Shown one piece after another: positions 10,246 through 41,850 of a stretch of 64,000 nt of DNA. The stretch lies in IMG/VR virus record IMGVR_UViG_3300027887_000560. One strand, 5' to 3'. Source of the DNA: a virus. Both the position numbers and the translations under genes were made by a program. The notes under the pieces were generated by a model that saw only the letters and a list, made by a program, of their open reading frames with translations, did no database searches and was not told the DNA's origin. Each line of letters opens with the position of its first letter. The first letter of the stretch is position 1.

Positions 10246-11943
10246 TCAGACGGCGAGCTTGAGCTGCGCGGGTGGTTTGCGCACGAGATCTTGTTCGGGA
10301 TGTCGGTTGAGTACCTTGTCCAAGACATCCTGCTTGGCGATGATTCGCTTGGACATGTTCACGTCGATGGTGCCGTCGAGGACCAGGTGGATGATGTGGA
10401 CCATCTTCTTCTGGCCGATCCTGGCCAGACGATCTTCGGCCTGGCTGACGATGGAGGGGTTCCAGTCCACTTCGACCAGGATGGCGGTCGAGGCTCGGTA
10501 GAGATTGAAGCCCACTGCCGTCTTGAGGCCCCCGATGAAGATGCGCGCGTCGCCCTCCTGGAAGCGCTTGACGGCCTTCTCGCGATCTGGTTTCGAGGTT
10601 TCACCGTGCAGTGTGACGGCCTGTTCGCCATAGTGTTCGGCGAGCTTGGCCAGGACATCCTGGTGGTGGGCGAAGATGACGAGCTTGTCGATCCCCGAGG
10701 CCAACACATCATCTATGTAGGCGATACAGGCGGGAAGCTTGGCGAGAGCCGTCTTGTGGCGGAATTCGCTCATCTCGGTGAAGGCGACGCCGATGAAGTC
10801 GTCGAGGGCCTGGATGGCAGCCTTGTACTCCTCGTTGGTCTTGGCGGCCTCCAGGGCGCCCAGGCGAGCTTCGTAGTCGGCATCGTAGAGCTGCTTCCAG
10901 CGTTGGAAGTCAGGATCCAGCGACCAGTCGATCTCGGAATCTCCGAGCACGACGAGTTGCCGGCGCTTCGGGGGCAGCTCCTTGAGCACGTCGGCGCGTC
11001 GGCGCCGGATCATGAAGCTGGCGCGCAGGCGTTGTTGCAGCTCGCCCAGGTGGGTTGCGCCCGTGTCGATGGTTCTACCGCCTTGCCGGTGAAGGCCGCA
11101 GTAGCGATGGGCGAATTCGATCCAGTTGCCGAACTTGGCGGGACAGATGGCGGCGGCGATCGTCCAGATCTCCTTGGGATAGTTCTCGACTGGCGTTCCG
11201 GTCAAGAACAGGCAACGGTGAGATCGTTGCATGAGGCCGTTTTCGCCAAGTACGGCTTGCGTGCGCTGGGCATTGGGAGTCTTGAGAGCGTGAGCCTCGT
11301 CGCAGATGAGCACGTCCCAGATGCGTTCGAGAGATCGTGTGAGCGGCGATTCCCTGATGAGCTTTTCGTAGTTCACGATGACGAGGAGGTTGTCACGTTC
11401 GGGGATAATGGTTCGCCCCGACTTGGCGATCACGATCTCCCGGTCGTCCACCAACCATTTCTCAGCCTCGTTTCGCCAGTTGAACGATAGCGTGTCCGGT
11501 GCAACGACAAGGACGTTTTTGGGGCGTAGGAGATTCAGGAATCCTAATGCCTGGATCGTCTTTCCCACTCCCATCTCGTCACCGAGCAAGGTGTCCTTGT
11601 GGTCGCGTATGTAAGCGATGCCGGCTTTCTGGAATGGCAAATACGCGAGACCTTGGGGGCAGGGGATTATGATGTCGGCGTCCACCGCCCGAGATCGCTC
11701 CAGCTTCTTGAGGTGCTCCTTCATCGCCGCGAGCGCCAGGGTGTTACAGTAGGATTTGAGTCGCGTGGCCGCCTCGACGCGGTTTGACCAGAAGCGGTTA
11801 CCTATGTTCGCGCGACAAGCCTTGCAATGGCTGTCTTTTCGACACATGGAGGGTTCGTGCAGCTCGAAGCCGGCACGGCGAAGGGCGCCGCGTTCGTCGG
11901 GTTTGTCCACGACGAAGATGCCTTTCCAGTAGGTAATGATCAT
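10246..11943 (-). CDS. SNF2-family DNA helicase/translocase
   Basis: Motif I GDEMGVGKT, motif II DEAH (LICDEAHALK), LFLTGTPVEN, and helicase-C motif VI QAEDRLARIGQ; N-terminal Cys-rich segment (CRKDSHCKAC). Confidence 0.85.
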   Translation of the reverse strand: MIITYWKGIFVVDKPDERGALRRAGFELHEPSMCRKDSHCKACRANIGNRFWSNRVEAATRLKSYCNTLALAAMKEHLKKLERSRAVDADIIIPCPQGLAYLPFQKAGIAYIRDHKDTLLGDEMGVGKTIQALGFLNLLRPKNVLVVAPDTLSFNWRNEAEKWLVDDREIVIAKSGRTIIPERDNLLVIVNYEKLIRESPLTRSLERIWDVLICDEAHALKTPNAQRTQAVLGENGLMQRSHRCLFLTGTPVENYPKEIWTIAAAICPAKFGNWIEFAHRYCGLHRQGGRTIDTGATHLGELQQRLRASFMIRRRRADVLKELPPKRRQLVVLGDSEIDWSLDPDFQRWKQLYDADYEARLGALEAAKTNEEYKAAIQALDDFIGVAFTEMSEFRHKTALAKLPACIAYIDDVLASGIDKLVIFAHHQDVLAKLAEHYGEQAVTLHGETSKPDREKAVKRFQEGDARIFIGGLKTAVGFNLYRASTAILVEVDWNPSIVSQAEDRLARIGQKKMVHIIHLVLDGTIDVNMSKRIIAKQDVLDKVLNRHPEQDLVRKPPAQLKLAV

Positions 11944-12883: not shown

Positions 12884-13009
12884 TCAAAGAAATCTTGAAA
12901 AAGATATTGACCGCTCGATTGAGCGCGCGTACCGTGCTCTCGCTGGACTCAAGAGCCAGCAAGCCGGGCCACGGTGGCACCGGTATCACCACCCACAGAG
13001 GAGATCCCT
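12884..13009. promoter_or_regulatory. AT-richer divergent intergenic region, likely promoter(s)
   Basis: About 125 nt gap between divergent genes; noticeably AT-richer than its surroundings, with repeated TTGAAT and a TTGACC hexamer; strong RBS (gaggagat) just before the 13010 start. Confidence 0.3.
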
Positions 13010-13501
13010 ATGGCAGCCAACAACACCAAGTCCGCAACTCCCTCCGTCCGCGCGCCCGAGGGCTTCCGCCGGGTCGGTTCCGCGAGCAATGCTCCGTGGT
13101 TCCACCTGGCCGAAGGCAATCAGATGCAAGGCGTGCTCATCAACGTGTTCGAGCGTCCGGACGAGCGGACCGAGAGCAAGACCTCGAAGTTCTTCCAGGT
13201 CGAGCTGCTCGCGCCCACCAAGGTCCGCGAGGGCAAGGGCGAGAAGGCGGCGGTGGTCGAGGCGTCGGCCGGTACGATCATCAACGTGAACTGCAACGCG
13301 AAGACCAAGGAATTCGAGTCGCTCATCCCCGAGATCGTGCGCGGCGCCGAGTACCAGGTCTTCGTTCACGTCGGCAAGAAGTTCCCGATCTCCAAGGGTC
13401 GTTCGATGTGGGACATCACCGCCGCCGTGAAGCTGGTCAAGCCGGCCATGGCGACCGATCAGCCCGACTTCGCGGATGACGAAGAAGCGACCGTGGAGTA
13501 A
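13010..13501 (+). CDS. hypothetical protein with acidic C-terminal tail (164 aa); possibly abundant
   Basis: Strong RBS, AT-rich upstream region, terminator hairpin downstream of the operon; the C-terminus ends DQPDFADDEEATVE. Confidence 0.45.
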   Translation: MAANNTKSATPSVRAPEGFRRVGSASNAPWFHLAEGNQMQGVLINVFERPDERTESKTSKFFQVELLAPTKVREGKGEKAAVVEASAGTIINVNCNAKTKEFESLIPEIVRGAEYQVFVHVGKKFPISKGRSMWDITAAVKLVKPAMATDQPDFADDEEATVE

Positions 13502-13740: not shown

Positions 13741-13795
13741 GCGAAGCCGGCGAAGCGGGGGTCATCCGTTCCCGTTTCGCCGGCTTTCGTCGGTT
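13741..13795 (+). terminator. stem-loop, candidate intrinsic terminator
   Basis: Inverted repeat cgaagccggcgaagcggg ... cccgtttcgccggctttcg (about 17 bp stem, one mismatch, 11 nt loop) directly after the 13010-13716 operon; no clear U-tract. Confidence 0.4.
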
Positions 13796-13903
13796 ACGTT
13801 GCGCTAGACGCGCCAGTTCGTAGGTTGCCTGTTGTGCTTCCGTGCTTACGGGAGCAGAATTGGCGGCTGCCGTTGCAAGTTCGCCGTTCGCTGGAGGTTT
13901 GCC

Positions 13904-14428
13904 ATGTCCGATACCCCACCCCTGTCAGATGGTGCAAGTCCGGGAAGCGAAGCCAAGGATGATGTTGGACAGCCCGTGGTATGGATCTCGTTCTGTCCAG
14001 AGCTTGGCCTCTATCACTATCACAATGAATCGGATCCAAACGAGGATCCTCTCGACACGAAGTTCACGCGCGAGGGGCTCCTGGATGTCGTAACGGGATT
14101 GATGCAATCCCAGCGCGTGAAGGACGCTCAAGATCTCGCATTCATGTGTGCCTGGGGTCGTCTCTTCGCGCACAAGATCGTGGTGTTCTATACCTCGGGA
14201 ATGTTCCGGGTATTCAATCCGTTGCCAATTCCCGATTCGGAGAAAGAGGAGAGCGCCGACATGCGAGAGTTTCTCGCGGACTGGAAGCGGAAGTACCCGA
14301 CTTCCGAATCGGTGCCCGTGGTCGCCGATTATCCATCGGTGGCAAAACGCAAGCTTGAAGAGGAGGAGAAGTCCGATCAGCAGCTTGCTGCCGAGATCGG
14401 GGTTCAGCATGGAGAAGATCCCAAGTAA
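13904..14428 (+). CDS. hypothetical protein (174 aa)
   Basis: Internal Met of ORF 13832..14428; immediately precedes the ATPase gene. Confidence 0.4.
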   Translation: MSDTPPLSDGASPGSEAKDDVGQPVVWISFCPELGLYHYHNESDPNEDPLDTKFTREGLLDVVTGLMQSQRVKDAQDLAFMCAWGRLFAHKIVVFYTSGMFRVFNPLPIPDSEKEESADMREFLADWKRKYPTSESVPVVADYPSVAKRKLEEEEKSDQQLAAEIGVQHGEDPK

Positions 14429-14437: not shown

Positions 14438-16318
14438 GTGATGATCAGTCGCCGTCTTACGGGTGGATTGTCATCCGGCCGACCGGGTTCTGTTGGACGT
14501 TCGGGGATCGGCCGCTCGTCGGTCGGTCGCCCGACGTTCGATGATGCGGACGAGTCCGTGAATGTCGAGCGCCGGTTGTCCAGGTCGCCGATCTATGAAG
14601 GGAGTGGTCCTTTCACGGGGGCCATGCCTCGTGCACAGCCTCCCAGGCTCCTGCGTGATCAGCTCTACGATCGGATGTGTGACTGGCGAGCGCACACGAT
14701 CGCCGAGATGGAGTCCTGGTTGCCGGGCAACAAGTGGGTGGAGGCCATGATCGATCTCATCACGTTTGGTTTTGCCTTCGAGCGTGAAGTGAGAGCCGAT
14801 GGGTGCCGAGCCTTGCGTCTGCGAAAGCGTGAGCCGTATGAGAGACGCCAGCAGGTGGTGGACATTCTCTCGGGCATGACGTTGCCCGATCGTATCGTGA
14901 CGTTGCCCGGTGCGGTGTTGCCACCAATCACGAGTCGAACCGAGGAGGTGGTCGAACCCAGGGCGAGCAGGGAGTTCGTCGATGAAGGACAATGGACTCC
15001 ACCACCCGATATCGAGCGCATGGTGCTCGATACGAGTGGTGACATTGTGCTCTCGGTGCCCGATCTCGTGACCGATACCATAGGTATCCTGGCTCGTAAA
15101 GGTGCGGGCAAGACGTACCTGGCCATGGTGATCGCCGAGGAGTTCCTGGCGAGCACGTTCTCCATTCCTTTCGTGGTCCTGGATCCCATGGGCGTGTGGT
15201 GGGGGCTCCTGTCCGATGTCGAGGGAAATCCGACCGAGCGCAGACTGGTGGTGTTCGGAGGCGCGCACGGGCACTATCCGCTCACGTCCAGGGATGGTGG
15301 GATCATGGCCAAGATGGTCGTGGCCTGTCGTCCCTTGCCGTTCGTGTTCGATCTGTCGGCATTTCCGCGCGAGGAGCAGCATCGTTTCTGTGCCGACTTT
15401 TCCGCCGAACTGTTCCTGGTCAACAAAGAGCCGTTGCACATTTTTCTCGACGAGGCGGATGGTTTTGCGCCCCAGCGGCTCGAAGGCAAGTCATCGAGGC
15501 ATCAGAAACGATCGCTGGCCGAGATCGACTGCCTGGTGCGCCGGGGACGCGTGCATGGGCTCGGCATGACGCTCATCACGCAGCGACCTGCGGTGATCTC
15601 GAAGAACGTGCTCTCCCAGGTGGGCGCCATGTTCTTCCTGGAAACCGGAGCACCGCACGATCTGCGTGCCATCGACGATTGGTTGCATGACCGTATCACC
15701 GAGGACGTGCGGCGCCAGTGTCGAGAGGAGTTGCCCGTGTTGGGTCCGGGGCAAGCGTTCTACCTGCGTGGGGGCGAGCATTACCGGTTCTGCAAGTTCA
15801 CGGTGCGATCGAAGAAGACCTATGATTCCTCGCTCACCCCGCGTATCGGTGACAAGCGTCCCGTTGCCAAGACCTACGCGCTCACGGATGAAGATCGCCG
15901 GTTGCTGGACGGGGCGATGGCTGCCGCGCGCTCCGGGGTGTTCGTGGCGGCGAATGCCGGTGATCTGTATAGTGATGATCCGGTGCAACGACCATCCGGT
16001 GTTCCGGCTGGTGAATCCAGGGCGAGCACGGACGATCTGTATAGCGACGATCCTGTTCCGGGGGCTGGTTCGGCGAGTGAAGTCGGGAGTGGTGATCCGG
16101 GTGGTGTCGATGATCCCGACAGTGACGCGGATGTTGGTTCAGGTGATGGGGAGAATGACGGCGCAGATAGCACAGTGGATGACGATGCATCGGATGACTC
16201 TTCATCAGATCTCGATGATTCGGATGAATCGGATGATTCGGATGAACCAGATGATTCGGGGGCGTCGGATGATGAGTTCGATGAGTCGTCGCCCGATTCC
16301 GAACAGAGGGATGAATAG
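14438..16318 (+). CDS. HerA/FtsK-superfamily P-loop ATPase with poly-acidic C-terminal tail
   Basis: Walker A GILARKGAGKTY; Walker B HIFLDEADGFAP; HerA/VirB4-type segment LITQRPAVISKNVLSQVGAMFFLE; last roughly 100 aa are Asp/Ser/Glu repeats (DSDESDDSDEPDDS). Confidence 0.65.
   Translation: MMISRRLTGGLSSGRPGSVGRSGIGRSSVGRPTFDDADESVNVERRLSRSPIYEGSGPFTGAMPRAQPPRLLRDQLYDRMCDWRAHTIAEMESWLPGNKWVEAMIDLITFGFAFEREVRADGCRALRLRKREPYERRQQVVDILSGMTLPDRIVTLPGAVLPPITSRTEEVVEPRASREFVDEGQWTPPPDIERMVLDTSGDIVLSVPDLVTDTIGILARKGAGKTYLAMVIAEEFLASTFSIPFVVLDPMGVWWGLLSDVEGNPTERRLVVFGGAHGHYPLTSRDGGIMAKMVVACRPLPFVFDLSAFPREEQHRFCADFSAELFLVNKEPLHIFLDEADGFAPQRLEGKSSRHQKRSLAEIDCLVRRGRVHGLGMTLITQRPAVISKNVLSQVGAMFFLETGAPHDLRAIDDWLHDRITEDVRRQCREELPVLGPGQAFYLRGGEHYRFCKFTVRSKKTYDSSLTPRIGDKRPVAKTYALTDEDRRLLDGAMAAARSGVFVAANAGDLYSDDPVQRPSGVPAGESRASTDDLYSDDPVPGAGSASEVGSGDPGGVDDPDSDADVGSGDGENDGADSTVDDDASDDSSSDLDDSDESDDSDEPDDSGASDDEFDESSPDSEQRDE
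16193..16300 (+). repeat. short tandem coding repeats (gat tcg gat gaa ...)
   Basis: Visible repetition gatgattcggatgaatcggatgattcggatgaaccagatgattcgg encoding the acidic tail of the ATPase. Confidence 0.45.
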
Positions 16319-17361
16319 TGGCCAGGCGTAAAATTCGCTTCAAGACGATTCCGGTAAAGGCGTACTGGAATTACACTGCTGCCGGCGATCGTTATCGTGT
16401 ACCAGCTCACAAGCGAAGGATTGCTGTTCCGGTCGTTGCCAAGGTTCCGGTCAGGAAACCCGTTATCAAGGTTCCACCACGGAAACCTAGCATCAAGGCG
16501 CCAGCACGGAAACCTGTTGTCAAGGCTCCAGTACAAAAACCTGTTGTCAAGGCTCCGGTAAAGAAGACACCAGGTAAGGTTCCGGTCAAGAAACCTGCTC
16601 CCAGGAAACCGGTACGAAAGCCTCCGGTCAAGAGGCCGGAGAAGAAGCCAGTCATCAAGAAGCCGGTCAGAAAGCCTGTCAAGAAACTGGCAGTCAAGAA
16701 GCCTGTCAGGAAACCGGTTGCCAAGAAGCCTGTCAAGAGACTCAAGAAGAAGCTTCCGAGGGGACCAAAGCGAAAGAAGATTAAGAAAAAGTACCCACCG
16801 TTCATTCGCCGGGCGATGGTTGCCGAGAACCTGATTCAAGAGAAGCTGTTTCGCATGTTGAATCACCTTGAGATCACGGATGCCGGGTTACAGATGTCCG
16901 TCCGGTCTTTCATCAACAGCGATTCCACGGTTGATGGCGAGCTGCGCATTTCCAACTTGCCGGATGAATGGCGAACCCTTGAGGGGTTACCGCTCATCAT
17001 CTCGGCCCTGTCGCTCGCCATAGATGCGATGGGTGCGTTCACGCAGGATGAGGCCATGGGGGGAAGGTTCTGGGTGTCCTTCGGTCTGCGGTTCGGTCCG
17101 AAGAATCAGGCCGAGATCGAGGAGATGGCCAAGTTCTACAAGCGGTTCCGGGGACTGTTCCAGGTCGGGGCGCACCATGCTTCGGCGCACGATACGGGTG
17201 CCATCAAGACCAATGCCCTGGCCATCCGTCTGTTCGTCGAGAACATCTGGGCGAAGCGTGATCTGCCACCCGTGCAGATCTTGGTGCGTTTCGTGTGGAC
17301 GCCAACCAAGAAGAATCCAGGTCGCGATGCCAAGGAAATCGGTGGCCGTTATGCCGAGTAG
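16318..17361 (+). CDS. Lys/Pro-rich repeat protein (histone-H1-like N-terminus) plus C-terminal globular domain
   Basis: Residues about 40-165 are KPVVKAPV / KKPVRKPV repeats; about 180 aa non-repetitive C-terminal domain of unknown function. Confidence 0.5.
   Translation: MARRKIRFKTIPVKAYWNYTAAGDRYRVPAHKRRIAVPVVAKVPVRKPVIKVPPRKPSIKAPARKPVVKAPVQKPVVKAPVKKTPGKVPVKKPAPRKPVRKPPVKRPEKKPVIKKPVRKPVKKLAVKKPVRKPVAKKPVKRLKKKLPRGPKRKKIKKKYPPFIRRAMVAENLIQEKLFRMLNHLEITDAGLQMSVRSFINSDSTVDGELRISNLPDEWRTLEGLPLIISALSLAIDAMGAFTQDEAMGGRFWVSFGLRFGPKNQAEIEEMAKFYKRFRGLFQVGAHHASAHDTGAIKTNALAIRLFVENIWAKRDLPPVQILVRFVWTPTKKNPGRDAKEIGGRYAE
16438..16798 (+). repeat. tandem 24-27 nt coding repeats
   Basis: For example aaacctgttgtcaaggctccagtacaaaaacctgttgtcaaggctccggtaaag; encodes the KPV-x-K-x-P repeats. 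Confidence 0.55.
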
Positions 17362-17370: not shown

Positions 17371-18021
17371 ATGACCATCAAGGAATTCATGGAGAGGACG
17401 CATGCTACGGCCGTCGCCAAGGGGTGGTGGGAAAGGGACGAGCGAACCGGGGCGCTGAAACCTCGTAACGAGGCCGAGATGCTGGCGCTCATGCACAGCG
17501 AGATCGCGGAGGCCCTGGAAATTCACCGGATGCCGTTGCGAAAGCTCTCGGATCTCTGGATGACGGAGACGGCTGGTGGAGGATCGGTGTCCGACGAGGA
17601 GCTGGCCTGGCTCGTGTCGGGCAAGCGTCCGGAGGGCACGGTCGAGAGCAAGCCGGAAGGGTTCATGGTCGAGATCGCGGATCTGATGATCCGGATCGCC
17701 GACACCTGCGAGGCTATGAAGATCCCTCTCGATGTGGTGCTGTGCAACACCGATGTTTCACGGCTGGGCTGGGGGCGCGAGAAGCTCGGAGCCAATGTGG
17801 TCGAGGCGCTCCAGCACATGAACGTGTGTCTGGTTTATGCGTACAACGGGTTGCAGAACGGTCGCGTCGAGGACACGGTGGCCGAGGCGTTCGCGGAGAT
17901 TTTCCAGACCTGTGGACAGATCGCCAGCGAGCTGGCGAATCTGTCCCTGGAGTACGTGCTCGTCTGGAAGATGCGGTACAACGATACCCGGCCCCATCGT
18001 CACGGCAACAAGAAGTGCTAG
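17371..18021 (+). CDS. MazG-like nucleoside triphosphate pyrophosphohydrolase
   Basis: LALMHSEIAEALEIHR and EGFMVEIADLMIRIADTCEAMKIPLDVVL match the all-alpha MazG/NTP-PPase helices with EExxE/D metal ligands. Confidence 0.55.
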   Translation: MTIKEFMERTHATAVAKGWWERDERTGALKPRNEAEMLALMHSEIAEALEIHRMPLRKLSDLWMTETAGGGSVSDEELAWLVSGKRPEGTVESKPEGFMVEIADLMIRIADTCEAMKIPLDVVLCNTDVSRLGWGREKLGANVVEALQHMNVCLVYAYNGLQNGRVEDTVAEAFAEIFQTCGQIASELANLSLEYVLVWKMRYNDTRPHRHGNKKC

Positions 18022-18027: not shown

Positions 18028-18258
18028 ATGGCCCGGATGTCGAGTTATGCCCTGGGTGACGATGCCGTGGATGGCGGTTTTCATGTTGCCTGGATCAAGA
18101 AGACGAAGGTTGGTTTGAAGCTCGTCGATGAGCGGTACGGCAAGAGGTGGAAAAGTCGTGATGATCTTCTGGGTGCCATGCAGTCGTGGATGTCGCTTCA
18201 TGCTCTGTTCATCAGGGTTGACGGCGACGTGGCGATCTTCGAGCCGAAGGACTACTAG
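18028..18258 (+). CDS. hypothetical small protein (76 aa)
   Basis: ORF between the MazG and PolB genes. Confidence 0.3.
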   Translation: MARMSSYALGDDAVDGGFHVAWIKKTKVGLKLVDERYGKRWKSRDDLLGAMQSWMSLHALFIRVDGDVAIFEPKDY

Positions 18259-18266: not shown

Positions 18267-20381
18267 ATGGCTGAATTCGGTCCCATCAACACCGATCGTA
18301 AGCTCCGGAGCTTCGGGGTGCTCGACCTTGAGTGGGTGCCCGGCGAGGTGTTGCCCATGCCGGAGAGCACGGTGCTCGAAATCGATGGCATCCAGACGCC
18401 GCTCATCATCAACCTGCCGCCGGTCAAGACGCGCACGGCTCCCTTGCAGCTCAGGCTTGCCGGGTATTACGACCAGCAGCCCGAGTGCGAGGATGAGGAC
18501 GAGCCTGTGATGGTCGAGCGCTACGAGGTTTTCAAGAGCGTGGCCGAGCTGATTGATTTCATGTTCGTGGGTGCTCATCGGGGCATGTGGTTCTTCGCGC
18601 ATGCCGGGGGCCTGTTCGACATGGAATTCGTGCTCGACGAGCTGCTCAACCAGATCAAGGAGTCACTGGCTTCCCGGCGGCAGCGTTCGCGGACGGTGTA
18701 CGATGCGGAAGGAAGGAAGTGCGAGGAGACCATCACGGCGACGGGGCCGGAGAAGGATGCGCCGACCTGGACGATCAAGGCAGCATTCTCGGGATCGTCG
18801 GCCATCATCATCCATGTCAACAAGGGGAAGAACACCTGGCACTGCGTGGACTCCTACTGGTTGTTCCGGGACAAGCTCTCGAAGATCGGCGAGAGCATCG
18901 GGATCCGGAAGCTCGACGAGGAGAAGCGCAGGACGCCCGAGGAGACCCGGAGATACTACGCCGAGACGCCGCTTGAGACGCTGATCCCTTATAACAAGGT
19001 CGATTGCGAGATCTTGTGGAAGGCCATCGCGGGCTTCGAGAAGGAGGTGCTCGGGCTCGGCGGGCAGCTCCAGCAGACCATCGCCTCGACGGCGATGAAC
19101 CTGTTTCGCCGGGCGTACCTGAAACGGACGATTCACACCTCGGAGATCTTGAATCAGATCGCCGTCAAGAGCTACTTCGCATCCCGTGTCGAGGTCTTTC
19201 AGCGACATGTCGAGGATTTCTTCATTTACGACATCAATTCGTCGTTTCCGTATTCGATGACTTTTCCGTTGCCGGCTGATCTGATCGAGATGGGGACGAC
19301 CATTCCGGAAGACGACGACGATTCGTGTATTTACCTGGCGGATGCCACCGTCGAGGTTCCCGAGATGGCGGTACCGCCATTGCCTTTCCGGACGACGGAA
19401 GACAGTCGTGTGTTTTTTCCCGTCGGCAAGTGGCGCTCCTGGTTCACATCGACCGATCTGCGGCTGGCGTTTCGCGAGGGTTGCACGATCCACAAGGTGC
19501 ACGAGTGTTACCGGTTCGAGCCGTTCGAGGATTTTGGCGAGTACGCCAGGCAGATCTACGCCATGCGCGCGGCGTCGGACAACCCGTTTCGCAAGCTGCT
19601 CTTGAAGTACCTTCTGAATTCGCTGTACGGCAAGGCGGCCGAGTCCCTGATGAAGCAGGAGATGCTCATCAACCCGAGCGAGGACGATCTGGATCGCACG
19701 CAGTTGCAGATGTTGCAGCCGGGGATCTGGTTGCGTGAGAAAGAGGTGGCCATTGCTCATCGTCACGTAGTGGTGTCTTCCGTCATCACGGCATTGTCTC
19801 GCCGACATCTCTATGACTATGCCAAGATGTGTGAAGAGCAAAAGAAACCAATCTATTACTGTGACACTGACAGCGTGGCAACGAGAGCGACATTGCCAAC
19901 CGATCCAAAGAAGCTTGGTGCCTTGAAGCTGGAAAAGAAGATGGACTGGACCGAGTTCGTGGCTCCCAAGATCTACCGGGGAGAGGGTGCCGAGTTGAAG
20001 GGCGACGGCACCTGGAAGGACGTGAAGCTGGCCAAGGCCAAGGGGTTCTCGCTCGGCAAGTTCGACAGTCCCATCGAAGCCCTGGGTAGGATCATCGACG
20101 GCCAGCAGGTGGGGGTCCAGTCGATGGTGCGCATGCGCGAGCTTTACCGCTCGACCACCGAGGAGCACGCGGAAAGCGCGCCTTACGAACGTCTCGTGAT
20201 CAAGGCGCTCACGCAACGGATGCTCTCGAAGCGGTTCTTCTATCCGGACGGGCACACGCGCGCCTGGACGACCGATGAGATCCTGTCGGGCGACTTCCAG
20301 ACCCAGGGCTTCGATTTCAGCGAGGAGTTCATGAACCAGCTCGATACCACGACGCGGGCGATGCTGGAGGCTGCGGTATGA
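18267..20381 (+). CDS. family B DNA polymerase (704 aa; size and motifs consistent with protein-primed pPolB)
   Basis: Exo I VLDLEW, Exo II HAGGLFDMEF, Exo III YNKVDCE, motif A DINSSFPYS, motif B KYLLNSLYGK, motif C YYCDTDS. Confidence 0.9.
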   Translation: MAEFGPINTDRKLRSFGVLDLEWVPGEVLPMPESTVLEIDGIQTPLIINLPPVKTRTAPLQLRLAGYYDQQPECEDEDEPVMVERYEVFKSVAELIDFMFVGAHRGMWFFAHAGGLFDMEFVLDELLNQIKESLASRRQRSRTVYDAEGRKCEETITATGPEKDAPTWTIKAAFSGSSAIIIHVNKGKNTWHCVDSYWLFRDKLSKIGESIGIRKLDEEKRRTPEETRRYYAETPLETLIPYNKVDCEILWKAIAGFEKEVLGLGGQLQQTIASTAMNLFRRAYLKRTIHTSEILNQIAVKSYFASRVEVFQRHVEDFFIYDINSSFPYSMTFPLPADLIEMGTTIPEDDDDSCIYLADATVEVPEMAVPPLPFRTTEDSRVFFPVGKWRSWFTSTDLRLAFREGCTIHKVHECYRFEPFEDFGEYARQIYAMRAASDNPFRKLLLKYLLNSLYGKAAESLMKQEMLINPSEDDLDRTQLQMLQPGIWLREKEVAIAHRHVVVSSVITALSRRHLYDYAKMCEEQKKPIYYCDTDSVATRATLPTDPKKLGALKLEKKMDWTEFVAPKIYRGEGAELKGDGTWKDVKLAKAKGFSLGKFDSPIEALGRIIDGQQVGVQSMVRMRELYRSTTEEHAESAPYERLVIKALTQRMLSKRFFYPDGHTRAWTTDEILSGDFQTQGFDFSEEFMNQLDTTTRAMLEAAV

Positions 20382-20608
20382 CGACGCGGCGGCCCTGTCG
20401 GCTCGACGAGATGATGACGGCCTACGAGCGGCTCGTGATCATGCAGACGCTCGAACGCAACCGGTGGAACCGTGGCAAGGCCGCCCAGGCGCTCGGGATC
20501 TCGCGGCGTCGGTTGCAGTACCGGATGAAAGCCTTGCACTTCGATCTGGGCGCGATCCCCAGGGATGTGCCGGGGCGGCGTCTGCGCGTCGGCAAGGAGG
20601 GTGGGTAG
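20378..20608 (+). CDS. Fis-type helix-turn-helix DNA-binding protein (76 aa)
   Basis: ERLVIMQTLERNRWNRGKAAQALGISRRRLQYRMKAL is a canonical Fis/NtrC C-terminal HTH; start overlaps the PolB stop. Confidence 0.5.
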   Translation: MTTRRPCRLDEMMTAYERLVIMQTLERNRWNRGKAAQALGISRRRLQYRMKALHFDLGAIPRDVPGRRLRVGKEGG

Positions 20609-22473: not shown

Positions 22474-22682
22474 GTGTCGGGGGTGATCGCATGGCGTTCT
22501 TCAATCGCCTGGGTGTGCTCAATGTGTCGGTGGCCGATGCCCTGGAGGCCCTGCGGGATCATCTCGGGCTTTCCTGGCCCGAGTTCGAGACGGCGCTCAA
22601 CCGTGGCGATGTCAAGCGGTTGCTCGACGAGCATGACGCCAAGGTGCGGTTGAACGTGCAGTTGTACGGGAGGATGCGATGA
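22470..22682 (+). CDS. hypothetical small protein (70 aa)
   Basis: ATGA overlap with the previous gene. Confidence 0.3.
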   Translation: MSVGGDRMAFFNRLGVLNVSVADALEALRDHLGLSWPEFETALNRGDVKRLLDEHDAKVRLNVQLYGRMR

Positions 22683-23335
22683 TTCGCGAGATCTCCGCCT
22701 GGCCGCTGGTCTGGCCGGTGGGCAGGCCCCGCCGCCCGGCGACCGAGCGTGAAGTGGCACGTTTCGGGCAGGAGCGAGAGCGAGGAGGCGCCGACGGTTC
22801 TCCGGTTTACCGAGCCAAGCAGCCCTTGACCATCGTGGCGGCGCTCGGCAGGCTGCGTGCCGAGCTGGGACGACGGGGCGCCGAGGACGTGGTGATCTCG
22901 ACGAACGTGCCCACGCGCCAGGATGGTTTGCCGTATTCCAGCGCGCGGGAGCCCGACGATCCTGCGGTCGCGGTCTATTTCCGGTGGAAGGGCGAGCTGC
23001 ATTGCATGCCGTGCGACAAGTGGACCAGGGTCGCCGACAACCTGGCGGCCGTGGCGGCGCATCTCGATGCCCTTCGTCGCATCGAACGCTATGCCGTCGG
23101 GGACATCGCGCAAGCCTTTGCCGGGTACAAGGCGCTGCCGGCGGCGGGAGCCAAGCGGAGCTGGTGGGAGGTACTCGGGTTCGAGAATCCTCCGTCCTAC
23201 AAGGTCGCGAAGGAGAAATCTCGCGAGCTGCTTCGCGACCTGCATCCCGATCGTGGTGGTAACCACGTCCAGGCCGCAGAGATCAACGCCGCGCTCGACG
23301 AGGCGGAGCAGTACCATGCATCGAGGAATCCATGA
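22679..23335 (+). CDS. J-domain protein (J-domain at C-terminus)
   Basis: SWWEVLGFENPPSYKVAKEKSRELLRDLHPDRGGNHVQAAEINAALDEA: J-domain helices II-III with an HPD tripeptide. Confidence 0.6.
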   Translation: MIREISAWPLVWPVGRPRRPATEREVARFGQERERGGADGSPVYRAKQPLTIVAALGRLRAELGRRGAEDVVISTNVPTRQDGLPYSSAREPDDPAVAVYFRWKGELHCMPCDKWTRVADNLAAVAAHLDALRRIERYAVGDIAQAFAGYKALPAAGAKRSWWEVLGFENPPSYKVAKEKSRELLRDLHPDRGGNHVQAAEINAALDEAEQYHASRNP

Positions 23336-26632: not shown

Positions 26633-26989
26633 ATGAACCGGAAACTGTATGTGACGAACATTCCATGGAGTGTCACCAACGATGATTTGAAGGCTTGGCT
26701 TGTTGATCGCGGTTTCGTGGTTGACGAGGTCAAGATCATCTTGAGCAAGGAAGACGGGCGTTCGCGGGGGTTCGGGTTCGTGACGTTTCGGACCGATGCG
26801 GACCTGGATCGCGCGCTCACGGAGCTGGAAGGTGCCCTGTATCTCAAGCGACCCTTGCATGTGGCCGAGGCCATGCAAAAACGCGGAGGGGGGCACAAAC
26901 GATCTCCCGAGCGATCGTTCGATGAACCGCACGACGCTCCTCGCAGGGGACATCGTGGCCGGGAGCGTGGCGACTACGACAGGGATTGA
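26633..26989 (+). CDS. RRM (RNA recognition motif) RNA-binding protein with Arg/Gly-rich tail
   Basis: RNP-2 LYVTNI and RNP-1 RGFGFVTF at the canonical spacing; C-terminal RGHRGRERGDYDRD. Confidence 0.75.
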   Translation: MNRKLYVTNIPWSVTNDDLKAWLVDRGFVVDEVKIILSKEDGRSRGFGFVTFRTDADLDRALTELEGALYLKRPLHVAEAMQKRGGGHKRSPERSFDEPHDAPRRGHRGRERGDYDRD

Positions 26990-26992: not shown

Positions 26993-28036
26993 ATGTTCCC
27001 AGCCATTCACAAGGGTATTTGCCTGTTCTGCGGTAAGCTGGACAAGGTGGTTCGGCTCGCCAATACACCGGGAATGGCGCAGGCTTTGACCACGGCCATC
27101 GCTTCCAAGCTGGCTCCAGCCGATGGCATTTGCAATGATTGCTCCTATTCGTTGCGCAACGTCTGGATGACGGAGCGCAATGAGCTGATCCGAGCGTCGT
27201 CTCCCCGGATCGTGCTGACCTATCTGTTGGTGCCGAGCATGCTCGTCGAGCACAGCGATGTGGACATCGCCGCCTACGAGTTCTTGACCGATAGCACGGG
27301 CAATGTGCCCAACATCGATTTCTATGATGACGAGCGCAAGATCTCCAAGATCCTTCCCTGGCTGGAGAAGACCTATGGAATCGTGACCTGGCCGGTGAAG
27401 ATCAAGCGTTGCTATCTCGGTTTCAATCCCATGGGGCTCTTCTCGGAGGTTTTGCTGGTCAGGGCGTGGGGAAAGTCCTACAAGCATGTGGTCGAGACGC
27501 AACAGGTAGGCTTTCTGCGCTTGCTCAATCAGGTGGCGCCGGAGGCGGGATTCTACCTGGGGGTCAAGAGCGCCTTCGAGGCGTTGCTGTGGCGGCGGGA
27601 GGCCGTACCAGCGGGGAACGAGCTGTGCGTTGTGATGCGTGAAGCGGCGATGCGCTACATCGCGTACAAGAGCCAGCAGGAAAAAGTCCCCGATGCCACG
27701 TCTCTGGATCTCTGCTACGGGCTCATGTCGCCGCTGGAGAAGGAGATCGCTCGCGACGTGCTGATCGACATGGCCAAGGCTACGGTCACGACGGTTGTGC
27801 CCAGCCATGAGGTGATCAGGCCGGAAGCTGCGCGTGAGGAGGCCGCGAGGGTGGCGGCTGCCGCGCGATCGATCAACTTCGACGACGATGTTCCCGGTGA
27901 TGCCGATGAAGATGCCGGAGAGTTCGAGCCGGGGGACGAGGCCGAGGATGACAATCGTCCTGCCGTGACTGTCGATGCTCGTAGCGTCGCGCCCGGTTTC
28001 GCGCGCAAGCCGCGTTCTCCGCTTGTTCGTCCCTGA
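26993..28036 (+). CDS. hypothetical protein (347 aa) with N-terminal CxxC pairs and acidic C-terminus
   Basis: CLFCGK...CNDC; no other motif. Confidence 0.4.
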   Translation: MFPAIHKGICLFCGKLDKVVRLANTPGMAQALTTAIASKLAPADGICNDCSYSLRNVWMTERNELIRASSPRIVLTYLLVPSMLVEHSDVDIAAYEFLTDSTGNVPNIDFYDDERKISKILPWLEKTYGIVTWPVKIKRCYLGFNPMGLFSEVLLVRAWGKSYKHVVETQQVGFLRLLNQVAPEAGFYLGVKSAFEALLWRREAVPAGNELCVVMREAAMRYIAYKSQQEKVPDATSLDLCYGLMSPLEKEIARDVLIDMAKATVTTVVPSHEVIRPEAAREEAARVAAAARSINFDDDVPGDADEDAGEFEPGDEAEDDNRPAVTVDARSVAPGFARKPRSPLVRP

Positions 28037-28053
28037 TCTGTTCGGAGGTTCCC

Positions 28054-29322
28054 ATGGCCCTGCCTGTCGTACAAAACATGCCCTTGCCCGAGCTGGATGA
28101 TGCGGATCCCGTGCCAAGCGTCTCGTTGCATGTGCTGGCCAAGAATGCCGAAAGTGTCATCGGGCGGTTGATCGACAACATCGGTCCCTACGTCCAGGAG
28201 ATGAGGTTCATCCTGAACGATACGACCGATCACTCTCGCCGGGTCGTGGAGCGGAAACTCGGGGAGTGGCCGAGGCCGATGTCGTTCGACATTCAGGAGA
28301 TCACGGCGGAGAACCATCCCGAGCTGTACTTTCTCGATGAGGTTTCATCGTATCGTGTGGGCAAGTCGCTTTCCGACGAACAGTTCGAGGGGCCGTGTAC
28401 CGGTAAACCGTTGCTCTGCGACTGGGCGGCGATCCGGAACCTCGGCTGGGAATCGAGCTGTGACTGGCGACTGTTTCTCGATGTCGATGATGTCGTCGAG
28501 GATCCTCGCCGACTGCCGGCGCTGGTGACGATGCTCGACCGGCAACGCGTGGATCTGGCGGCGACGCGCTACGTGTTCGGGCGCAACGATGCTGGCGTGG
28601 CCAACTCGGTCTCGTACCGGGAGCGGCTGGCCAAGAACCTACCGGCCATACGCTGGGAAGGCAGCACGCACGAGATCTTGGTCGGTGGTCTGCGTCGAGT
28701 GCTCATCGAGGATTGCTTCCAGGTCGTGGATCTCAAGGATAACTGGGGCAAGGGAACCCGCGTGCCAGGGCGCTGCTTCAAGGTTCTCTATCGCGAGGCG
28801 AGGATGGCCGGCTGGGATACGGTCACGCCTCGCCATCTGGCGTATCTCGTGCAAGAGAGCCCTAAGATGATGCCCTTGGTATGGGTTACCGGTGTTCTTT
28901 TGCCGTTCTATCTAGCTCGCTGTGTGCATGGTGAAGAAGCGGCCTGGGTATTGTCGATGGTTGCCGAGATGCACGAGCAAGCTGGTGAGTTGCTGAAAGC
29001 CGAGAAGTTGCTTGTCGATGCGTTGAAGCATTACATGGCTTCCAAGGCAGCGTTCCGCCTATGTCGAGTGCGGTTCCTTCTCAATGACTGGCAGGGGTGT
29101 ATCGAGGCTTACAAGATGGGTTTGCTTTATCAGTCGTCGGCGCAGGTGTTGGACATGGGGCCGGTCTATGTGCATTCGAGCAAGCTCCTGGTGGCCCAGT
29201 CGTACTTCGAGCTGGGTGACATGGCCATGGCCAGGGAGACGATCGATGAGGCCGTGACGGCTCTGGGCGATACGGCCACGCCCATCGTCCGGGAGTTGCA
29301 GGCAGCCATTCATTCGGGGTGA
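28054..29322 (+). CDS. family-2-like glycosyltransferase with C-terminal TPR-like helical domain
   Basis: SVSLHVLAKNAESVIGRLIDNI N-terminal pattern, DWAAIRN and DxD (LFLDVDDVVED); paralog of 34709..35818. Confidence 0.5.
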   Translation: MALPVVQNMPLPELDDADPVPSVSLHVLAKNAESVIGRLIDNIGPYVQEMRFILNDTTDHSRRVVERKLGEWPRPMSFDIQEITAENHPELYFLDEVSSYRVGKSLSDEQFEGPCTGKPLLCDWAAIRNLGWESSCDWRLFLDVDDVVEDPRRLPALVTMLDRQRVDLAATRYVFGRNDAGVANSVSYRERLAKNLPAIRWEGSTHEILVGGLRRVLIEDCFQVVDLKDNWGKGTRVPGRCFKVLYREARMAGWDTVTPRHLAYLVQESPKMMPLVWVTGVLLPFYLARCVHGEEAAWVLSMVAEMHEQAGELLKAEKLLVDALKHYMASKAAFRLCRVRFLLNDWQGCIEAYKMGLLYQSSAQVLDMGPVYVHSSKLLVAQSYFELGDMAMARETIDEAVTALGDTATPIVRELQAAIHSG

Positions 29323-29897
29323 ATGTGTCCAGGGATCCGCAGATCTTGACCAAGCGACAGAACTACCGGCTATGGCAGTCGGGGGAGTTTGGTAACAAGC
29401 TGCGGGCGTGGCCTTCGGTCGATGCGTGGCGCGCAAGTGGTTTCACCGGTCGGGTGGTGTTGCGCGCCCTGTTGCCCGTCGGTGGCGGACCATGTCGCTA
29501 CAACCTGGAGCCCGACGAGGTCGAGCGCACAGTTGGTTACTGGCTCGCGGACGGCATGCATCGGGATGCCATCATGGTCAACGAGGCCGCCCCCGATCAG
29601 GCGGCCATCTTGCAGGGCGAGTATCTCAACGGCATCGTTGGCGCCTACTGGAATTGCTTGCACTACAGTCGGGTAGCCGCGCACATGCGCATCGCGCTTG
29701 GTGCCGAGATGCTGTTCGCCAACGGCATGATGTCCGATCTGCTGTTGCGTGAGGCCATGACACCATCGTCCTACGAGGACTGGCGGTTGCTCCTGGAGCG
29801 GTATCCAGGACATGTGCTGGAGGTTTCCATCTACAATCGTTGTGTCGGGGATATTCCCGGTCGCAACGCGCTCGTCTGGGAGGTTCGACGGTACTAG
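29319..29897 (+). CDS. hypothetical protein (192 aa)
   Basis: ORF. Confidence 0.35.
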   Translation: MNVSRDPQILTKRQNYRLWQSGEFGNKLRAWPSVDAWRASGFTGRVVLRALLPVGGGPCRYNLEPDEVERTVGYWLADGMHRDAIMVNEAAPDQAAILQGEYLNGIVGAYWNCLHYSRVAAHMRIALGAEMLFANGMMSDLLLREAMTPSSYEDWRLLLERYPGHVLEVSIYNRCVGDIPGRNALVWEVRRY

Positions 29898-29935
29898 CTT
29901 TCATATCTGGGTCACCGGGAGACAAGGAGAACAGG

Positions 29936-30892
29936 ATGGCAAGACACATCGTACAGGCTGCGGAAGAGTTGCTCGACAAGCGGTTCCCCGTTCTCGATCA
30001 CGGGTTCGTGATCTTGGTCGATTACATGGGCAGTGATGCCGCCATCGCGGAGGCCGCGCGCCAGTCGCTCGCGGGCGAGAACACGCGCAAGGTGTCCGAC
30101 GATCGCGCTCTCATCCGTTACCTCATGAGCCATTTGCACACGAGTCCGCTGGAGATGGTGGAGTTCAAGTTTCACTGCGCCATGCCGATTTTCGTGGCCC
30201 GTCAGTGGATTCGCCACCGCACGGCCAACGTCAACGAGCAGTCGGGACGTTATGGCGAGATGCCCGAGCTGACCTACGTGCCCGAGGCCGAGCAGATCGC
30301 CTATCAGAGTCCCGTGAACAAGCAGGGGCGTGGCGGTCTGGCGACACCCGAGGTTGCCGCCGTTGTGCAAGGGATGTTGCGTGCGTCCAACGTTACGGCG
30401 TTCTCCGACTATCACGAGTTCCTGGGGCACTCCGGGGATGTCAGGCACATGTTGATGGACCATCCGGATGCGGCAAATGAGATTGCCCAGAACGGCGGCA
30501 TCTCGCGCGAGGTGGCTCGCATCAACCTGCCGCTCTCGACCTATACGCAATGGTACTGGAAGCTGGATCTGCACAACCTGCTGCACTTCCTCTTCTTGCG
30601 GCTCGACGAGCACGCGCAGTGGGAGATCCGTCAGTACGCCAAGGTCATGGCCGAGATGGTGCAGGCCGTCTGTCCCATGGCCTGGGAAGCGTTCGTGGAC
30701 TACCGGCAGAAGGCCATCCGGTTGTCGTTGCCCGAGATAGAAGCTCTCCATGTGCTCATCACGCAGTTTCATTTGGGCCAGCCGTCGTCGCTCGAAGGTC
30801 ACGAGACTCGTTTGAACAAGCGGGAGCTGGAGGAGCTTCGTACCAAGCTCGGACCGACGATGCTGGGTCTTGGTTTCCTGAACGGGTTCTGA
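29936..30892 (+). CDS. thyX: flavin-dependent thymidylate synthase ThyX
   Basis: ThyX signature RHR-x7-S-x-R: QWIRHRTANVNEQSGRY; length and flanking FKFHCAMPIFVARQ consistent. Confidence 0.85.
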   Translation: MARHIVQAAEELLDKRFPVLDHGFVILVDYMGSDAAIAEAARQSLAGENTRKVSDDRALIRYLMSHLHTSPLEMVEFKFHCAMPIFVARQWIRHRTANVNEQSGRYGEMPELTYVPEAEQIAYQSPVNKQGRGGLATPEVAAVVQGMLRASNVTAFSDYHEFLGHSGDVRHMLMDHPDAANEIAQNGGISREVARINLPLSTYTQWYWKLDLHNLLHFLFLRLDEHAQWEIRQYAKVMAEMVQAVCPMAWEAFVDYRQKAIRLSLPEIEALHVLITQFHLGQPSSLEGHETRLNKRELEELRTKLGPTMLGLGFLNGF

Positions 30893-31657
30893 ACGAGGTG
30901 AAGCGTGAGCAACGAGAGTGATGGTCGGACACCGCCAGAGGGATCTTCGATCGTGGCAGCCACGGCCGAGACCACCTTGCGGCGTCCCGCCACGCTCGAT
31001 GAAGCTTTCGAGTCGGCGAGCAAGGTGCTGCACGGGCTGTCGATGCACTATGCCACGGGGCTCGATGGTCCTGCGGTCAAGTTGCTGGAAGTCGAAACCA
31101 TTTTCCGCGAGCTGGAGTCGGACGTTCGGCGTCTGGTTCTGGCAGCGCAAGAGCAAGAACAATGAAGAAGGAGAAACCCATGCCCACCACCCCCGATGAC
31201 AAGATGGTTCACAGTGTAACCACCACCACGACACAGTTCACAAAGCAAGATGTGCTCGACATCATCGATCACCTGGTCGCGGGCGCCAGCAAGGTCGCAA
31301 TCGTGTTCGCGCAGATCGAAACGCAGCGGCGTTCGTCCGAAGATCTGCGGGAGGCCGCCAAGATGGCCGGCGGTGAGGGACACAACTAGCCGGGTTTGCA
31401 AGCCGACATGCGGAAGCGAAACGAGAAGATCGATCGATGCTGCCTGGATGAAGCATTCCAGGAGCGGGCGCTTCATGGACGGCAGTGCGATCTGATCGTC
31501 GTGGCTTCACTGTTCGCGACGGGCTGGGTCTTGCCGTCCGATCGGCGCCTGGTGGAAGCCTATGTCCTGCCGATACTGGATGCGCTCGACTTGGCCCAGG
31601 AAGCGTTCATCGACGAGATCATGGCATCGGTCGCGTTGTCGGAAGCGGAGCTGTGAC

Positions 31658-32158
31658 ATGTTGCCGTTCAACGATGCCGCCAGGCAGGCGTTCCTGGCCT
31701 TCTTCACCAAGCCGGCGATCTCCGAGCCGTTGTCGGCCGAGCTGGCGCAGATCCCCGAGATCTATCGTGAGTGTCTGGCAATCGAGGCGTTCTTCATCAC
31801 GCTGGGCGTGGAGCCGGACGATCTATCCCTGGGCGTGACGGCCAGAAATCCGGAAGACGGCGAGGGTAGCGATCTGATCATGGTGGCGAAGCTGGAGCCC
31901 CGTTCGATGGTGATACGGGTCGCGCCCCTGGTGAACGATTTCGATTTCGAGGTCATAAGGGCGGGCTGGACGAAGGCCACCGAGATCTGGAACCGGGCTT
32001 CGCGCGAGGACAAGAACCGGTTGGTCGTGCAGTCGGATTCCTTCGAGGATTTTCCAACCTTCCTGGAGGCCGCTGCTGACAGCAACATCGTGTTTCCGGC
32101 GATGATCGACTACCTGGTGAAATTGCGGAGTCTCCAGTATCGGGGAGCGCGCAACTAA
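31658..32158 (+). CDS. hypothetical protein (166 aa)
   Basis: Internal Met after upstream stop. Confidence 0.35.
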   Translation: MLPFNDAARQAFLAFFTKPAISEPLSAELAQIPEIYRECLAIEAFFITLGVEPDDLSLGVTARNPEDGEGSDLIMVAKLEPRSMVIRVAPLVNDFDFEVIRAGWTKATEIWNRASREDKNRLVVQSDSFEDFPTFLEAAADSNIVFPAMIDYLVKLRSLQYRGARN

Positions 32159-32167
32159 GGGGGCAAC

Positions 32168-33777: not shown

Positions 33778-34037
33778 GTTCCCGTCGAACGCTTTCCTTC
33801 TATCTGTTCATGGTGATCTTTCTTGGTGGTTGCCTGAGCAACTTCTGGTTTCTTTGCTGGTGGCTGGCGCTCCTGTCCGACGTGGCTGCGTATGCCGTGG
33901 TTGGCGGGTTCATCAACTGGGTTGGGCAGTTTCATTGTCCCAGGATCGTGCTCTGGTGGTTGCCGATGCTGCTTTTGCCAAAGCTCGACTGGTTGGCGAT
34001 CTTGCGGCTCGGTGGCAAGAAGAAGGAAAAGTCGTGA
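33774..34037 (+). CDS. small membrane protein (87 aa, two TM)
   Basis: FYLFMVIFLGGCLSNFWFLCWWLALL ... WWLPMLLLPKL. Confidence 0.35.
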   Translation: MSSRRTLSFYLFMVIFLGGCLSNFWFLCWWLALLSDVAAYAVVGGFINWVGQFHCPRIVLWWLPMLLLPKLDWLAILRLGGKKKEKS

Positions 34038-36464: not shown

Positions 36465-36467
36465 CTC

Positions 36468-37540: not shown

Positions 37541-37550
37541 GAAGTGGACG

Positions 37551-41839: not shown

Positions 41840-41850
41840 AGGGGGCTGAC

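Follow-up and report, generated by a model that had tools for sequence, protein, structure and literature searches.

The 64,000-nt stretch of viral DNA analyzed here (IMG/VR record IMGVR_UViG_3300027887_000560; hereafter the window) encodes a family-B DNA polymerase (PolB) of 704 aa on its + strand at 18267-20381. This enzyme is almost certainly a member of the protein-primed PolB (pPolB) family. The genome of the element that carries it is probably linear with inverted terminal repeats (ITRs), and we favor, with moderate confidence, the reading that the polymerase replicates this large linear genome by protein priming. In textbooks, protein-primed PolBs are the replicases of small linear genomes; phi29-type enzymes underlie isothermal whole-genome amplification, which makes such polymerases of biotechnological interest. 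The enzyme itself adds a divergent new member to a known family; the departure lies in the size of the genome around it. The elements that carry such enzymes would form a family of large linear double-stranded DNA elements that is widespread and not yet cultivated; they are probably bacterial viruses.

Polymerase gene and family membership

The PolB open reading frame (ORF) spans exactly the positions given above, starts with ATG, and has a codon-position GC content (0.56/0.40/0.81) like that of the other genes in the window. We aligned the protein with 27 homologs of 58-91% identity, and all family-B motifs were intact and invariant across the 28 sequences. The exonuclease motifs are ExoI (DLEW, with D20 and E22 as D20-x-E22), ExoII (HAGGLFD, from H112 to D118, with D118 as the key residue), and ExoIII (YNKVDCE, with Y242 and D246). 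The polymerase motifs are motif A (YDINSSFPY, D322), motif B (KYLLNSLYGK, K447), motif C (YCDTDS, D533 and D535), and the KxY motif in the form K-I-Y (K568 and Y570). A first-pass annotation of the window had listed all six canonical motifs within 704 aa, and both the ORF and the motifs were confirmed. The ORF would encode an active proofreading family-B polymerase of the protein-primed lineage, nearest to the tectivirus-type enzymes of Methanosarcina spherical virus (MetSV), Bam35, and PRD1.

The same annotation had preferred the protein-primed over the RNA-primed class, and Pfam, phage-record matches, profile scores, and fold comparison all agreed with it for family membership. PF03175 ("DNA polymerase type B, organellar and viral") was the sole PolB family matched in Pfam (E=2.9e-29, 102.7 bits vs a cutoff of 25.8), and the RNA-primed families PF00136 and PF03104 gave no match to the 704-aa protein at E<=0.01. 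PHROG 1907 was matched at E=6e-41. Judged by these two E-values and the homolog numbers given below, the sequence signal is far above chance. A tblastn search of 50,697 phage records returned 13 weak matches (25-29% identity), every one to a protein-primed PolB, namely those of MetSV, of the tectiviruses Bam35, GIL16, and AP50, and of an archaeal virus annotated with a pPolB. The family profile scored MetSV at 130 bits, Bam35 at 90, PRD1 at 46, and phi29 at 19. Against all PDB sequences, the only polymerase matched by this profile was the phi29 DNA polymerase (E=0.003), in an alignment that runs from motif A to past KxY and covers phi29 TPR1 (261-358) and phi29 TPR2 (398-420); no RNA-primed PolB was matched.

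Fold comparison pointed in the same direction. The top Foldseek match of the AlphaFold2 (AF2) model (pLDDT 64, pTM 0.57) was the phi29 DNA polymerase (E=6e-20, TMt 0.62), and RNA-primed PolBs followed nine orders of magnitude behind (E~3e-11, TMt ~0.33). An unusually short RNA- or DNA-primed PolB, the outcome that the first-pass annotation had set against its own proposal, has nothing in its favor beyond the common family-B motifs. Such an enzyme should belong to PF00136 or PF03104 and have its nearest fold among the RB69, archaeal, or eukaryotic PolBs; neither Pfam family was matched, no RNA-primed PolB was among the PDB profile matches, and the TM-score of these polymerases is about half that of the phi29 enzyme (0.33 vs 0.62). 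We give this alternative a negligible probability, and it is already refuted at the level of sequence and fold.

TPR1 is the subdomain that interacts with the terminal protein in phi29 (PMC5695915). The spacing between motifs A and B is 125 aa in the window protein (120-135 in PRD1, phi29, and MetSV) and that between motifs B and C is 86 aa (73-94 in the same enzymes); both are within the pPolB range and therefore leave space for TPR1 and TPR2 inserts. A putative TPR1 insertion, a feature that the first-pass annotation had proposed to look for, lies between motifs A and B. HMMER aligns this segment to phi29 261-358 with few gaps, and the corresponding residues 339-417 are modelled at pLDDT 58-91. 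For TPR2, the segment GIWLREKEV aligns to the phi29 TPR2 hairpin GFRLGEEET, and the AF2 pLDDT is below 50 over residues 454-499. We treat TPR2 as present by alignment, with its fold unconfirmed since the region is poorly modelled.

The primer-independent PolBs (piPolBs) of pipolins make their own primers de novo. They have a PF03175-type architecture with TPR1 and TPR2 and need no terminal protein, so that a piPolB would account for the missing terminal-protein gene of the element. However, piPolBs carry the motif C sequence SxTTDG and an extended KH-X8-KTRG motif replacing KxY (PMC5695915), whereas the window enzyme has YCDTDS and K-I-Y at these positions, both invariant in the alignment. The top-scoring references are tectiviral pPolBs. 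Furthermore, the gene was found in only 2 of 185,579 species-representative genomes, on short contigs of metagenome-assembled genomes (MAGs) from unrelated phyla, which is not the pattern of a typical integrated island. A piPolB is thus very improbable. The two MAG contigs were judged to be mis-binned, and a host assignment from them was rejected. We also considered the "PolB_CDTDS" group (Kazlauskas et al., 2020) for the YCDTDS motif, which proved uninformative since phi29, PRD1, and MetSV carry the same motif.

Relatives of the polymerase are numerous in environmental DNA. More than 1,100 homologs of high identity occur in public metagenomes, on contigs of up to 282 kb, and all of those listed carry PF03175. 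The wider superfamily comprises 5,661 cluster representatives at E<=1e-3. The exact 704-aa protein is on a metagenome contig of 67,544 bp, the window's own contig, and IMG/VR holds two contigs with relatives of the polymerase (194.2 kb and 38.0 kb). About one-tenth of the listed homologs (P0028, P0031, P0034, P0042, P0094, and others) are ~400 aa longer, at ~1,100 aa, and contain the intein PF14890. A LAGLIDADG domain is present in the SNF2 helicase adjoining PolB in two relatives (L021 757-3777 and L022 1306-4134), indicating that inteins are recurrent in the replication genes of this element family.

Genome ends and inverted terminal repeats

The first-pass annotation had expected a linear genome with ITRs if the polymerase is protein-primed. 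The window starts and ends inside genes and has no terminal repeats in it, and a search of the window returned inverted-repeat pairs at chance level only. Because the window ends are not genome ends, ITRs could not show in the window itself. The expectation was borne out in close relatives, through assembly topology and fixed contig ends, and not for the window's own contig.

On eight contigs of 38-282 kb, we measured how far the PolB start lies from the contig end upstream of it, taken in the orientation of the gene. In seven of them, PolB is 14.8-24.4 kb away from this same end: 14.8 kb in the second IMG/VR contig (38.0 kb), 15.5 kb in P0052 (128.9 kb), 17.7 kb in P0008 (112.5 kb), 19.7 kb in the IMG/VR relative of 194.2 kb, 20.7 kb in P0022 (129.7 kb), 21.3 kb in P0096 (141.5 kb), and 24.4 kb in P0072 (282.4 kb). 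By our own rough estimate, random breakpoints of a circular or permuted genome would give such clustering with p ~1e-6.

The positions of these ends can be placed relative to one gene. Window positions 2-322 (+ strand) encode the C-terminal end of an 863-aa SNF2-like helicase (DUF6011+SNF2), the gene that comes first within the left terminal repeat and whose start codon falls 2,270 nt before the window begins. A DUF6011+SNF2 helicase of ~860-880 aa also comes first in the nearest clade, and the contigs of four distinct relatives end 36, 39, 161, and ~1,013 nt upstream of the start codon of this terminal helicase. Since the window starts 2,270 nt into the helicase gene, the PolB of the element would be ~20.6 kb from the break. 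The window's own 67.5-kb contig carries the complete terminal helicase, so its left end is at most ~1.3 kb upstream of that gene. Through a short-read contig, the sequence toward the element's own terminus was followed only to 36 nt ahead of the terminal helicase. When the ~45 nt at either end of the window were matched exactly against IMG/VR and JGI metagenome contigs, nothing was found, and a metagenome scan with the N-terminus of the terminal helicase returned only the already known 194-kb contig. Contigs with Flye-style names end at the same place, which argues for physical ends on the basis of naming only.

The 194,181-bp relative, whose PolB is 90% identical and which is syntenic with the window, carries the repeat topology. 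Its nucleotides 1-126 are a perfect reverse complement of 192,184-192,309, after which the identity falls to ~66%. Beyond the 126-nt match, the right end of this contig consists of 1,872 nt of gene-free, strongly strand-biased terminal DNA. The largest k-mer of the JGI metaSPAdes workflow is 127; a match that begins at contig base 1 and has a length within one base of this value is what would be expected if the two unique ends, facing outward, both joined a single collapsed repeat edge. The repeat would then be an ITR of ~2.0 kb that the assembly shows at one end. In two other relatives, the short-read contigs start within four nucleotides of the same boundary, and the 194-kb relative has no direct terminal overlap that would mark a circle. 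Read from the end inward, the right terminal 1,872 nt (locus L005 12739-14610) contain 37% G and 19% C; three tandem 14-nt units lie at 13772-13827, and the outermost bases are CCCATGGG...

The two arms mirror each other. Almost all genes of the window are on the + strand and its GC skew is positive throughout, whereas all genes in the right arm of the 194-kb relative are on the - strand with a GC skew of -0.11 to -0.52. The fixed ends, the repeat topology, and the mirror symmetry support a linear genome with long ITRs and replication inward from the ends.

Initiation of replication and the replication region

We hypothesize that PolB is the conserved replicase of the large linear element family and copies the whole genome. 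The genome would be linear with non-coding ITRs of ~2 kb at its ends. Replication would begin at both ends, where the polymerase would add the first nucleotide to a hydroxyl of a terminal protein, possibly the 347-aa protein described below, and processive strand displacement would then proceed inward. The outcome would be 5' ends that are each capped by protein, and two arms with mirrored GC skew. We consider such protein-primed initiation somewhat more likely than not.

Several points weigh against this model. No homolog of known terminal proteins was found for the element, and the 76-aa ORF adjoining PolB is not conserved. The C-terminal domain of the 347-aa protein has a predicted alpha+beta fold, showing no similarity to the all-helical terminal protein of phi29. 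The AF2 model of the polymerase has only modest confidence, and its TPR2 region is unresolved. In the outlier among the eight contigs, P0069 (ERZ25039462 contig_36229, 140,691 bp, locus L021), PolB is ~75 kb from the upstream end with normal local synteny; the left arm may be longer here, the ITR may have given rise to a head-to-head join, or the contig may be misassembled. The ITR was deduced from the assembly topology of a relative and was not seen in the window's own contig, and the perfect repeat of 126 nt differs from the 127 nt expected for a SPAdes k=127 overlap by one unexplained base. The topology and the skew do not distinguish protein-capped from hairpin ends. They would also be compatible with a circle that contains a large inverted repeat and has its origin at the junction, and the skew by itself would fit any circle with its origin there. 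A protein-primed replicon of 100-280 kb is without precedent, and another replisome may be encoded elsewhere.

Some of these points also favor a replicase of the pPolB family that copies a linear ITR genome and initiates without a terminal protein, by hairpin or fold-back self-priming as in poxviruses or parvoviruses, or with a primase encoded outside the examined regions. Neither a terminal-protein homolog nor a conserved adjacent small gene was found. The ITR of ~2 kb is unusually long vs the 6-nt repeats annotated in phi29, the genome size is far beyond the known pPolB range, and ITR topology alone cannot separate the two kinds of ends. However, the canonical pPolB architecture is strongly conserved, including the inserts aligned to TPR1 and TPR2, which speaks for protein priming. 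The outer end of the 194-kb relative's contig has no fold-back palindrome. In addition, neither a primase nor a second polymerase turned up in the window or within 10 kb on either side of PolB in six relatives, and no protelomerase was seen in the examined regions. We regard initiation without a terminal protein as unlikely.

The polymerase, perhaps together with the FtsK/HerA-type ATPase encoded upstream of it, could instead be a module captured from a small tectivirus-like or self-synthesizing element, with an accessory role in repair or end maintenance, or a non-essential one, and another replisome would then copy the genome. The two proteins match the same two PHROGs as those of the 10.5-kb MetSV, and our analysis covered only 64 kb of the element and ~29 kb of a relative. 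The window also has huge-phage-like genes (the major vault protein, or MVP, homolog and the SPFH protein described below), and the huge phages that share them are without a window-type PolB. Yet the enzyme is conserved in more than 100 relatives, with identities of 58-91% and catalytic residues that are all invariant. It sits at a fixed distance from the genome end among conserved neighbors, its codon-position GC does not set it apart from the rest of the window, and no inverted repeats or duplications flank it within the window. A captured module is therefore improbable, and protein-primed replication of the element by PolB remains our preferred reading.

For the terminal protein, the first-pass annotation had named two upstream ORFs, and both exist as described: one of 76 aa at 18028-18258 and a Lys/Pro-rich one of 347 aa at 16318-17361, both on the + strand. 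The 76-aa ORF directly upstream of PolB turned out to be a poor candidate. It is lineage-specific, being present only in the relative with the 90%-identical PolB, and a BLAST comparison of the ORFs that directly precede PolB in five relatives detected no homology, either to the 76-aa ORF or mutually. It is therefore unlikely to be the terminal protein.

The 347-aa protein is the only conserved candidate for a terminal protein or a DNA-binding protein. Its start overlaps the stop codon of the HerA-like ATPase gene, and its 54 homologs are all inside the same element family. The protein has an N-terminal RRDxxGRF-type motif, a histone-H1-like Lys/Pro linker whose length is very variable among homologs (with PF07382 matches in homologs), and a conserved alpha+beta C-terminal domain of ~190 aa in which S232 and Y274 are invariant. 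AF2 predicted this domain confidently (pLDDT 88, pTM 0.82). Foldseek against PDB gave no significant neighbor; the best matches were Y-family polymerase fragments (E=0.012, TM~0.3), which we take as a generic ferredoxin-like resemblance. By sequence and by profile, the whole protein matched only low-complexity proteins in PDB. Terminal proteins are not conserved between virus groups, so this structural null is uninformative and not negative. The structural result neither backs nor excludes a terminal-protein role, and a role in condensing DNA as a partner of the ATPase is equally conceivable for the 347-aa protein.

The genes conserved with PolB in divergent relatives encode a 175-aa protein, the DUF87 ATPase, the 347-aa protein, a Fis-type helix-turn-helix (HTH) protein, a PolB-exonuclease-like protein, and an SNF2 helicase. 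The ATPase (14438-16318, + strand, 626 aa with an acidic C-terminal tail) is located upstream of PolB and matches Pfam DUF87 and PHROG 2666. In hhalign, a profile of seven ATPase orthologs matched MetSV, PRD1 P9, and Bam35 ORF14 with 98.6% probability (E=8.6e-16) over 171 aligned columns that include Walker A, Walker B, and the TQRP motif. Cellular HerA proteins were also matched weakly, including those in PDB, and the safe label for this protein is therefore an FtsK/HerA-superfamily ATPase with tectiviral-ATPase-like features. The MetSV record carries the same pair as the window, a phrog_1907 polymerase and a phrog_2666 packaging ATPase. The pPolB and the packaging-type ATPase thus represent two of the three tectivirus-like hallmark genes, three genes apart.

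The other genes of this region were assigned as follows. The 175-aa protein (12974-13501, + strand), a candidate replication accessory, is conserved upstream of the ATPase, and the SNF2-family helicase (10246-11943, - strand) beside the replication module. A further conserved small protein is encoded at 13832-14428. Between the 347-aa and 76-aa ORFs lies a MazG-like nucleotide pyrophosphatase (17371-18021, + strand; PHROG 3301/9236), which is present in some relatives and 32% identical to its L007 ortholog. The Fis-type HTH (HTH_8) gene (20378-20608, + strand) overlaps the PolB stop codon and is conserved downstream of PolB in all examined relatives. The stand-alone PolB-exonuclease-like protein (PF10108; 24392-25234, + strand) is conserved in all of them. 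An RRM_1 RNA-recognition-motif protein (26633-26989) is conserved downstream of PolB in relatives. In the 129.7-kb relative (locus L008 190-5596), IS110-family and DDE transposase genes replace the ATPase/helicase region upstream of PolB, indicating that the replication module is not immune to rearrangement.

Gene content and comparison with known systems

The window also encodes ThyX, methyltransferases, RtcB, an SPFH protein, a phosphoesterase, DnaJ-like proteins, and a vault-protein homolog. Capsid, portal, terminase, and tail genes were not detected among ~60 window and relative proteins scanned against Pfam and PHROGs. The window gave no double-jelly-roll capsid protein in the Pfam/PHROG family scans, with no structure-based search made, and it has no tRNAs. 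The Fis-type HTH, a CHAP domain, and a sigma-70 region 4 protein, the last in a relative, suggest a bacterial host.

A modification cluster occupies ~28000-46000, with at least seven glycosyltransferases (28054, 32168, 34643, 37551, 38333, 42106, and 45118), Methyltransf_24 proteins at 41201 and 42798, a radical-SAM protein at 39160, and a SPASM/radical-SAM protein at 39882-41204; the two radical-SAM ORFs overlap in different frames, which makes their gene boundaries provisional. DnaJ-like (J-domain) proteins are encoded at 3383-4024 and 22679-23335, one of them with CxxC zinc-finger repeats. The protein at 22679-23335 matches PHROG 9210 (E=5e-50); its identity to "molecular chaperone" genes is 34-37% for those of Erythrobacter and Caulobacter phages and 38-42%, over partial length, for those of cyanophages. 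A 308-aa protein at 60366-61292 matches the phage transposase family PHROG 10081 (E=8e-18).

The ORF at 62376-64000 runs off the window end. Its 541 aa are ~40% identical, over their full length, to 809-827-aa proteins of uncultured huge phages (LR756501/LR756503 and LR756500; 735 kb and 462 kb). These full-length phage proteins match the MVP shoulder domain (Pfam E=1e-28), the Vault_3 repeat, and solved MVP structures (E=7e-14); the 541-aa fragment by itself gave no Pfam or PDB match. By way of these homologs, the ORF represents the N-terminal portion of a vault-protein homolog that a prokaryotic element carries. Just upstream of it are an RtcB RNA ligase (51563-52729), an SPFH/band-7 protein (53420-54655; 53% identity to its counterpart in LR756500, the 462-kb phage), and a metallophosphoesterase (56581-57744). 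The neighbors of the vault homolog in LR756500 (L029 2660-10435) are an RNA ligase, an HD+AAA_33 kinase-like protein, and a Macro-domain protein, and the two elements look like they share an "RNA repair plus vault-like" neighborhood.

The significance of the polymerase lies in its genomic setting. The pPolBs have been said to occur exclusively in viruses and mobile elements whose linear genomes are below 50 kb (PMC5695915) and are said to replicate "small linear genomes" (PMC7544198). Our literature search returned no description of large bacterial pPolB-bearing elements, and the largest pPolB viruses in the papers found were 10-30 kb. A conserved pPolB with intact catalytic residues, at a fixed position close to one end of contigs that bear ITRs and measure 112-282 kb, would break the 50-kb size rule. 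This raises the questions of how strand displacement is sustained over more than 100 kb, what acts as the terminal protein, and whether tectivirus-like viruses can give rise to bacterial descendants with large genomes. The family is abundant in metagenomes and near absent from curated phage and genome collections, indicating an unrecognised group. Tentatively, it may be an undescribed, widespread lineage of linear bacterial viruses or virus-like elements of ~110-280 kb that replicate by protein priming and derive from tectivirus-like ancestors. The pPolB and the packaging-type ATPase would have been kept while the genome grew by gene accretion, gaining the glycosylation cluster, the RNA-repair genes, and the vault homolog. 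If true, this lineage would be 4-6 times larger than any known pPolB replicon and would parallel, in bacteria, the growth that has been proposed for giant eukaryotic viruses from small polinton- or tectivirus-like ancestors.

Among known systems, the tectivirus-type polymerases of MetSV, Bam35/GIL16/AP50, and PRD1 (P1) are the closest. They belong to the same Pfam family (MetSV also to the same PHROG, 1907), reach the top profile scores, and share YCDTDS, KxY, and similar motif spacings with the window enzyme; the FtsK/HerA ATPase near the window PolB is related to the packaging ATPase of these viruses. Nevertheless, the identity is only 25-29%, and the window clade has ~100-150 extra N-terminal residues, with most relatives aligning from residue ~165. 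In tectivirus-type viruses the genome measures 10-15 kb, and the polymerase gene directly follows that of the terminal protein and lies 1-2 kb from the genome end, whereas the window element is larger than 64 kb (its relatives 112-282 kb), has PolB ~20 kb from the end, and lacks a terminal-protein homolog. The element has a Tectiliviricetes-like pair of pPolB and FtsK/HerA-type ATPase, the ATPase likeness being at the FtsK/HerA-superfamily level, and does not have the small genome of ~10-18 kb with terminal-protein and polymerase genes at the extreme left end that is a trait of Tectiviridae.

The phi29 DNA polymerase is the best structural neighbor of the window enzyme and has the same YCDTDS, although the two are 17-18% identical and differ in length (572 vs 704 aa). 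Phi29 (Salasmaviridae) is a tailed phage of 19 kb with 6-nt terminal repeats and an adjacent terminal-protein gene. The piPolBs belong to the same superfamily, have TPR1/TPR2-type inserts, and require no terminal protein; they differ in being carried by small integrative or plasmid elements and in having SxTTDG and KH-X8-KTRG where the window PolB keeps DTDS and KxY. Borgs have their large size and their linear, ITR-bearing, two-replichore architecture in common with the window element and its relatives. We rejected an affiliation with them since Borgs are archaeal and their PolB ("PolB9") is reported to group with the processive, RNA-primed PolBs (PMC12660748); a 2026 preprint, at odds with this, calls the Borg PolB "protein-primed" (bioRxiv 10.64898/2026.05.22.727314). 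The window element, unlike the archaeal Borgs, has the bacterial-type features named above. Finally, the uncultured huge phages of 462-735 kb share the MVP homolog and the SPFH protein with the window but not a window-type PolB.

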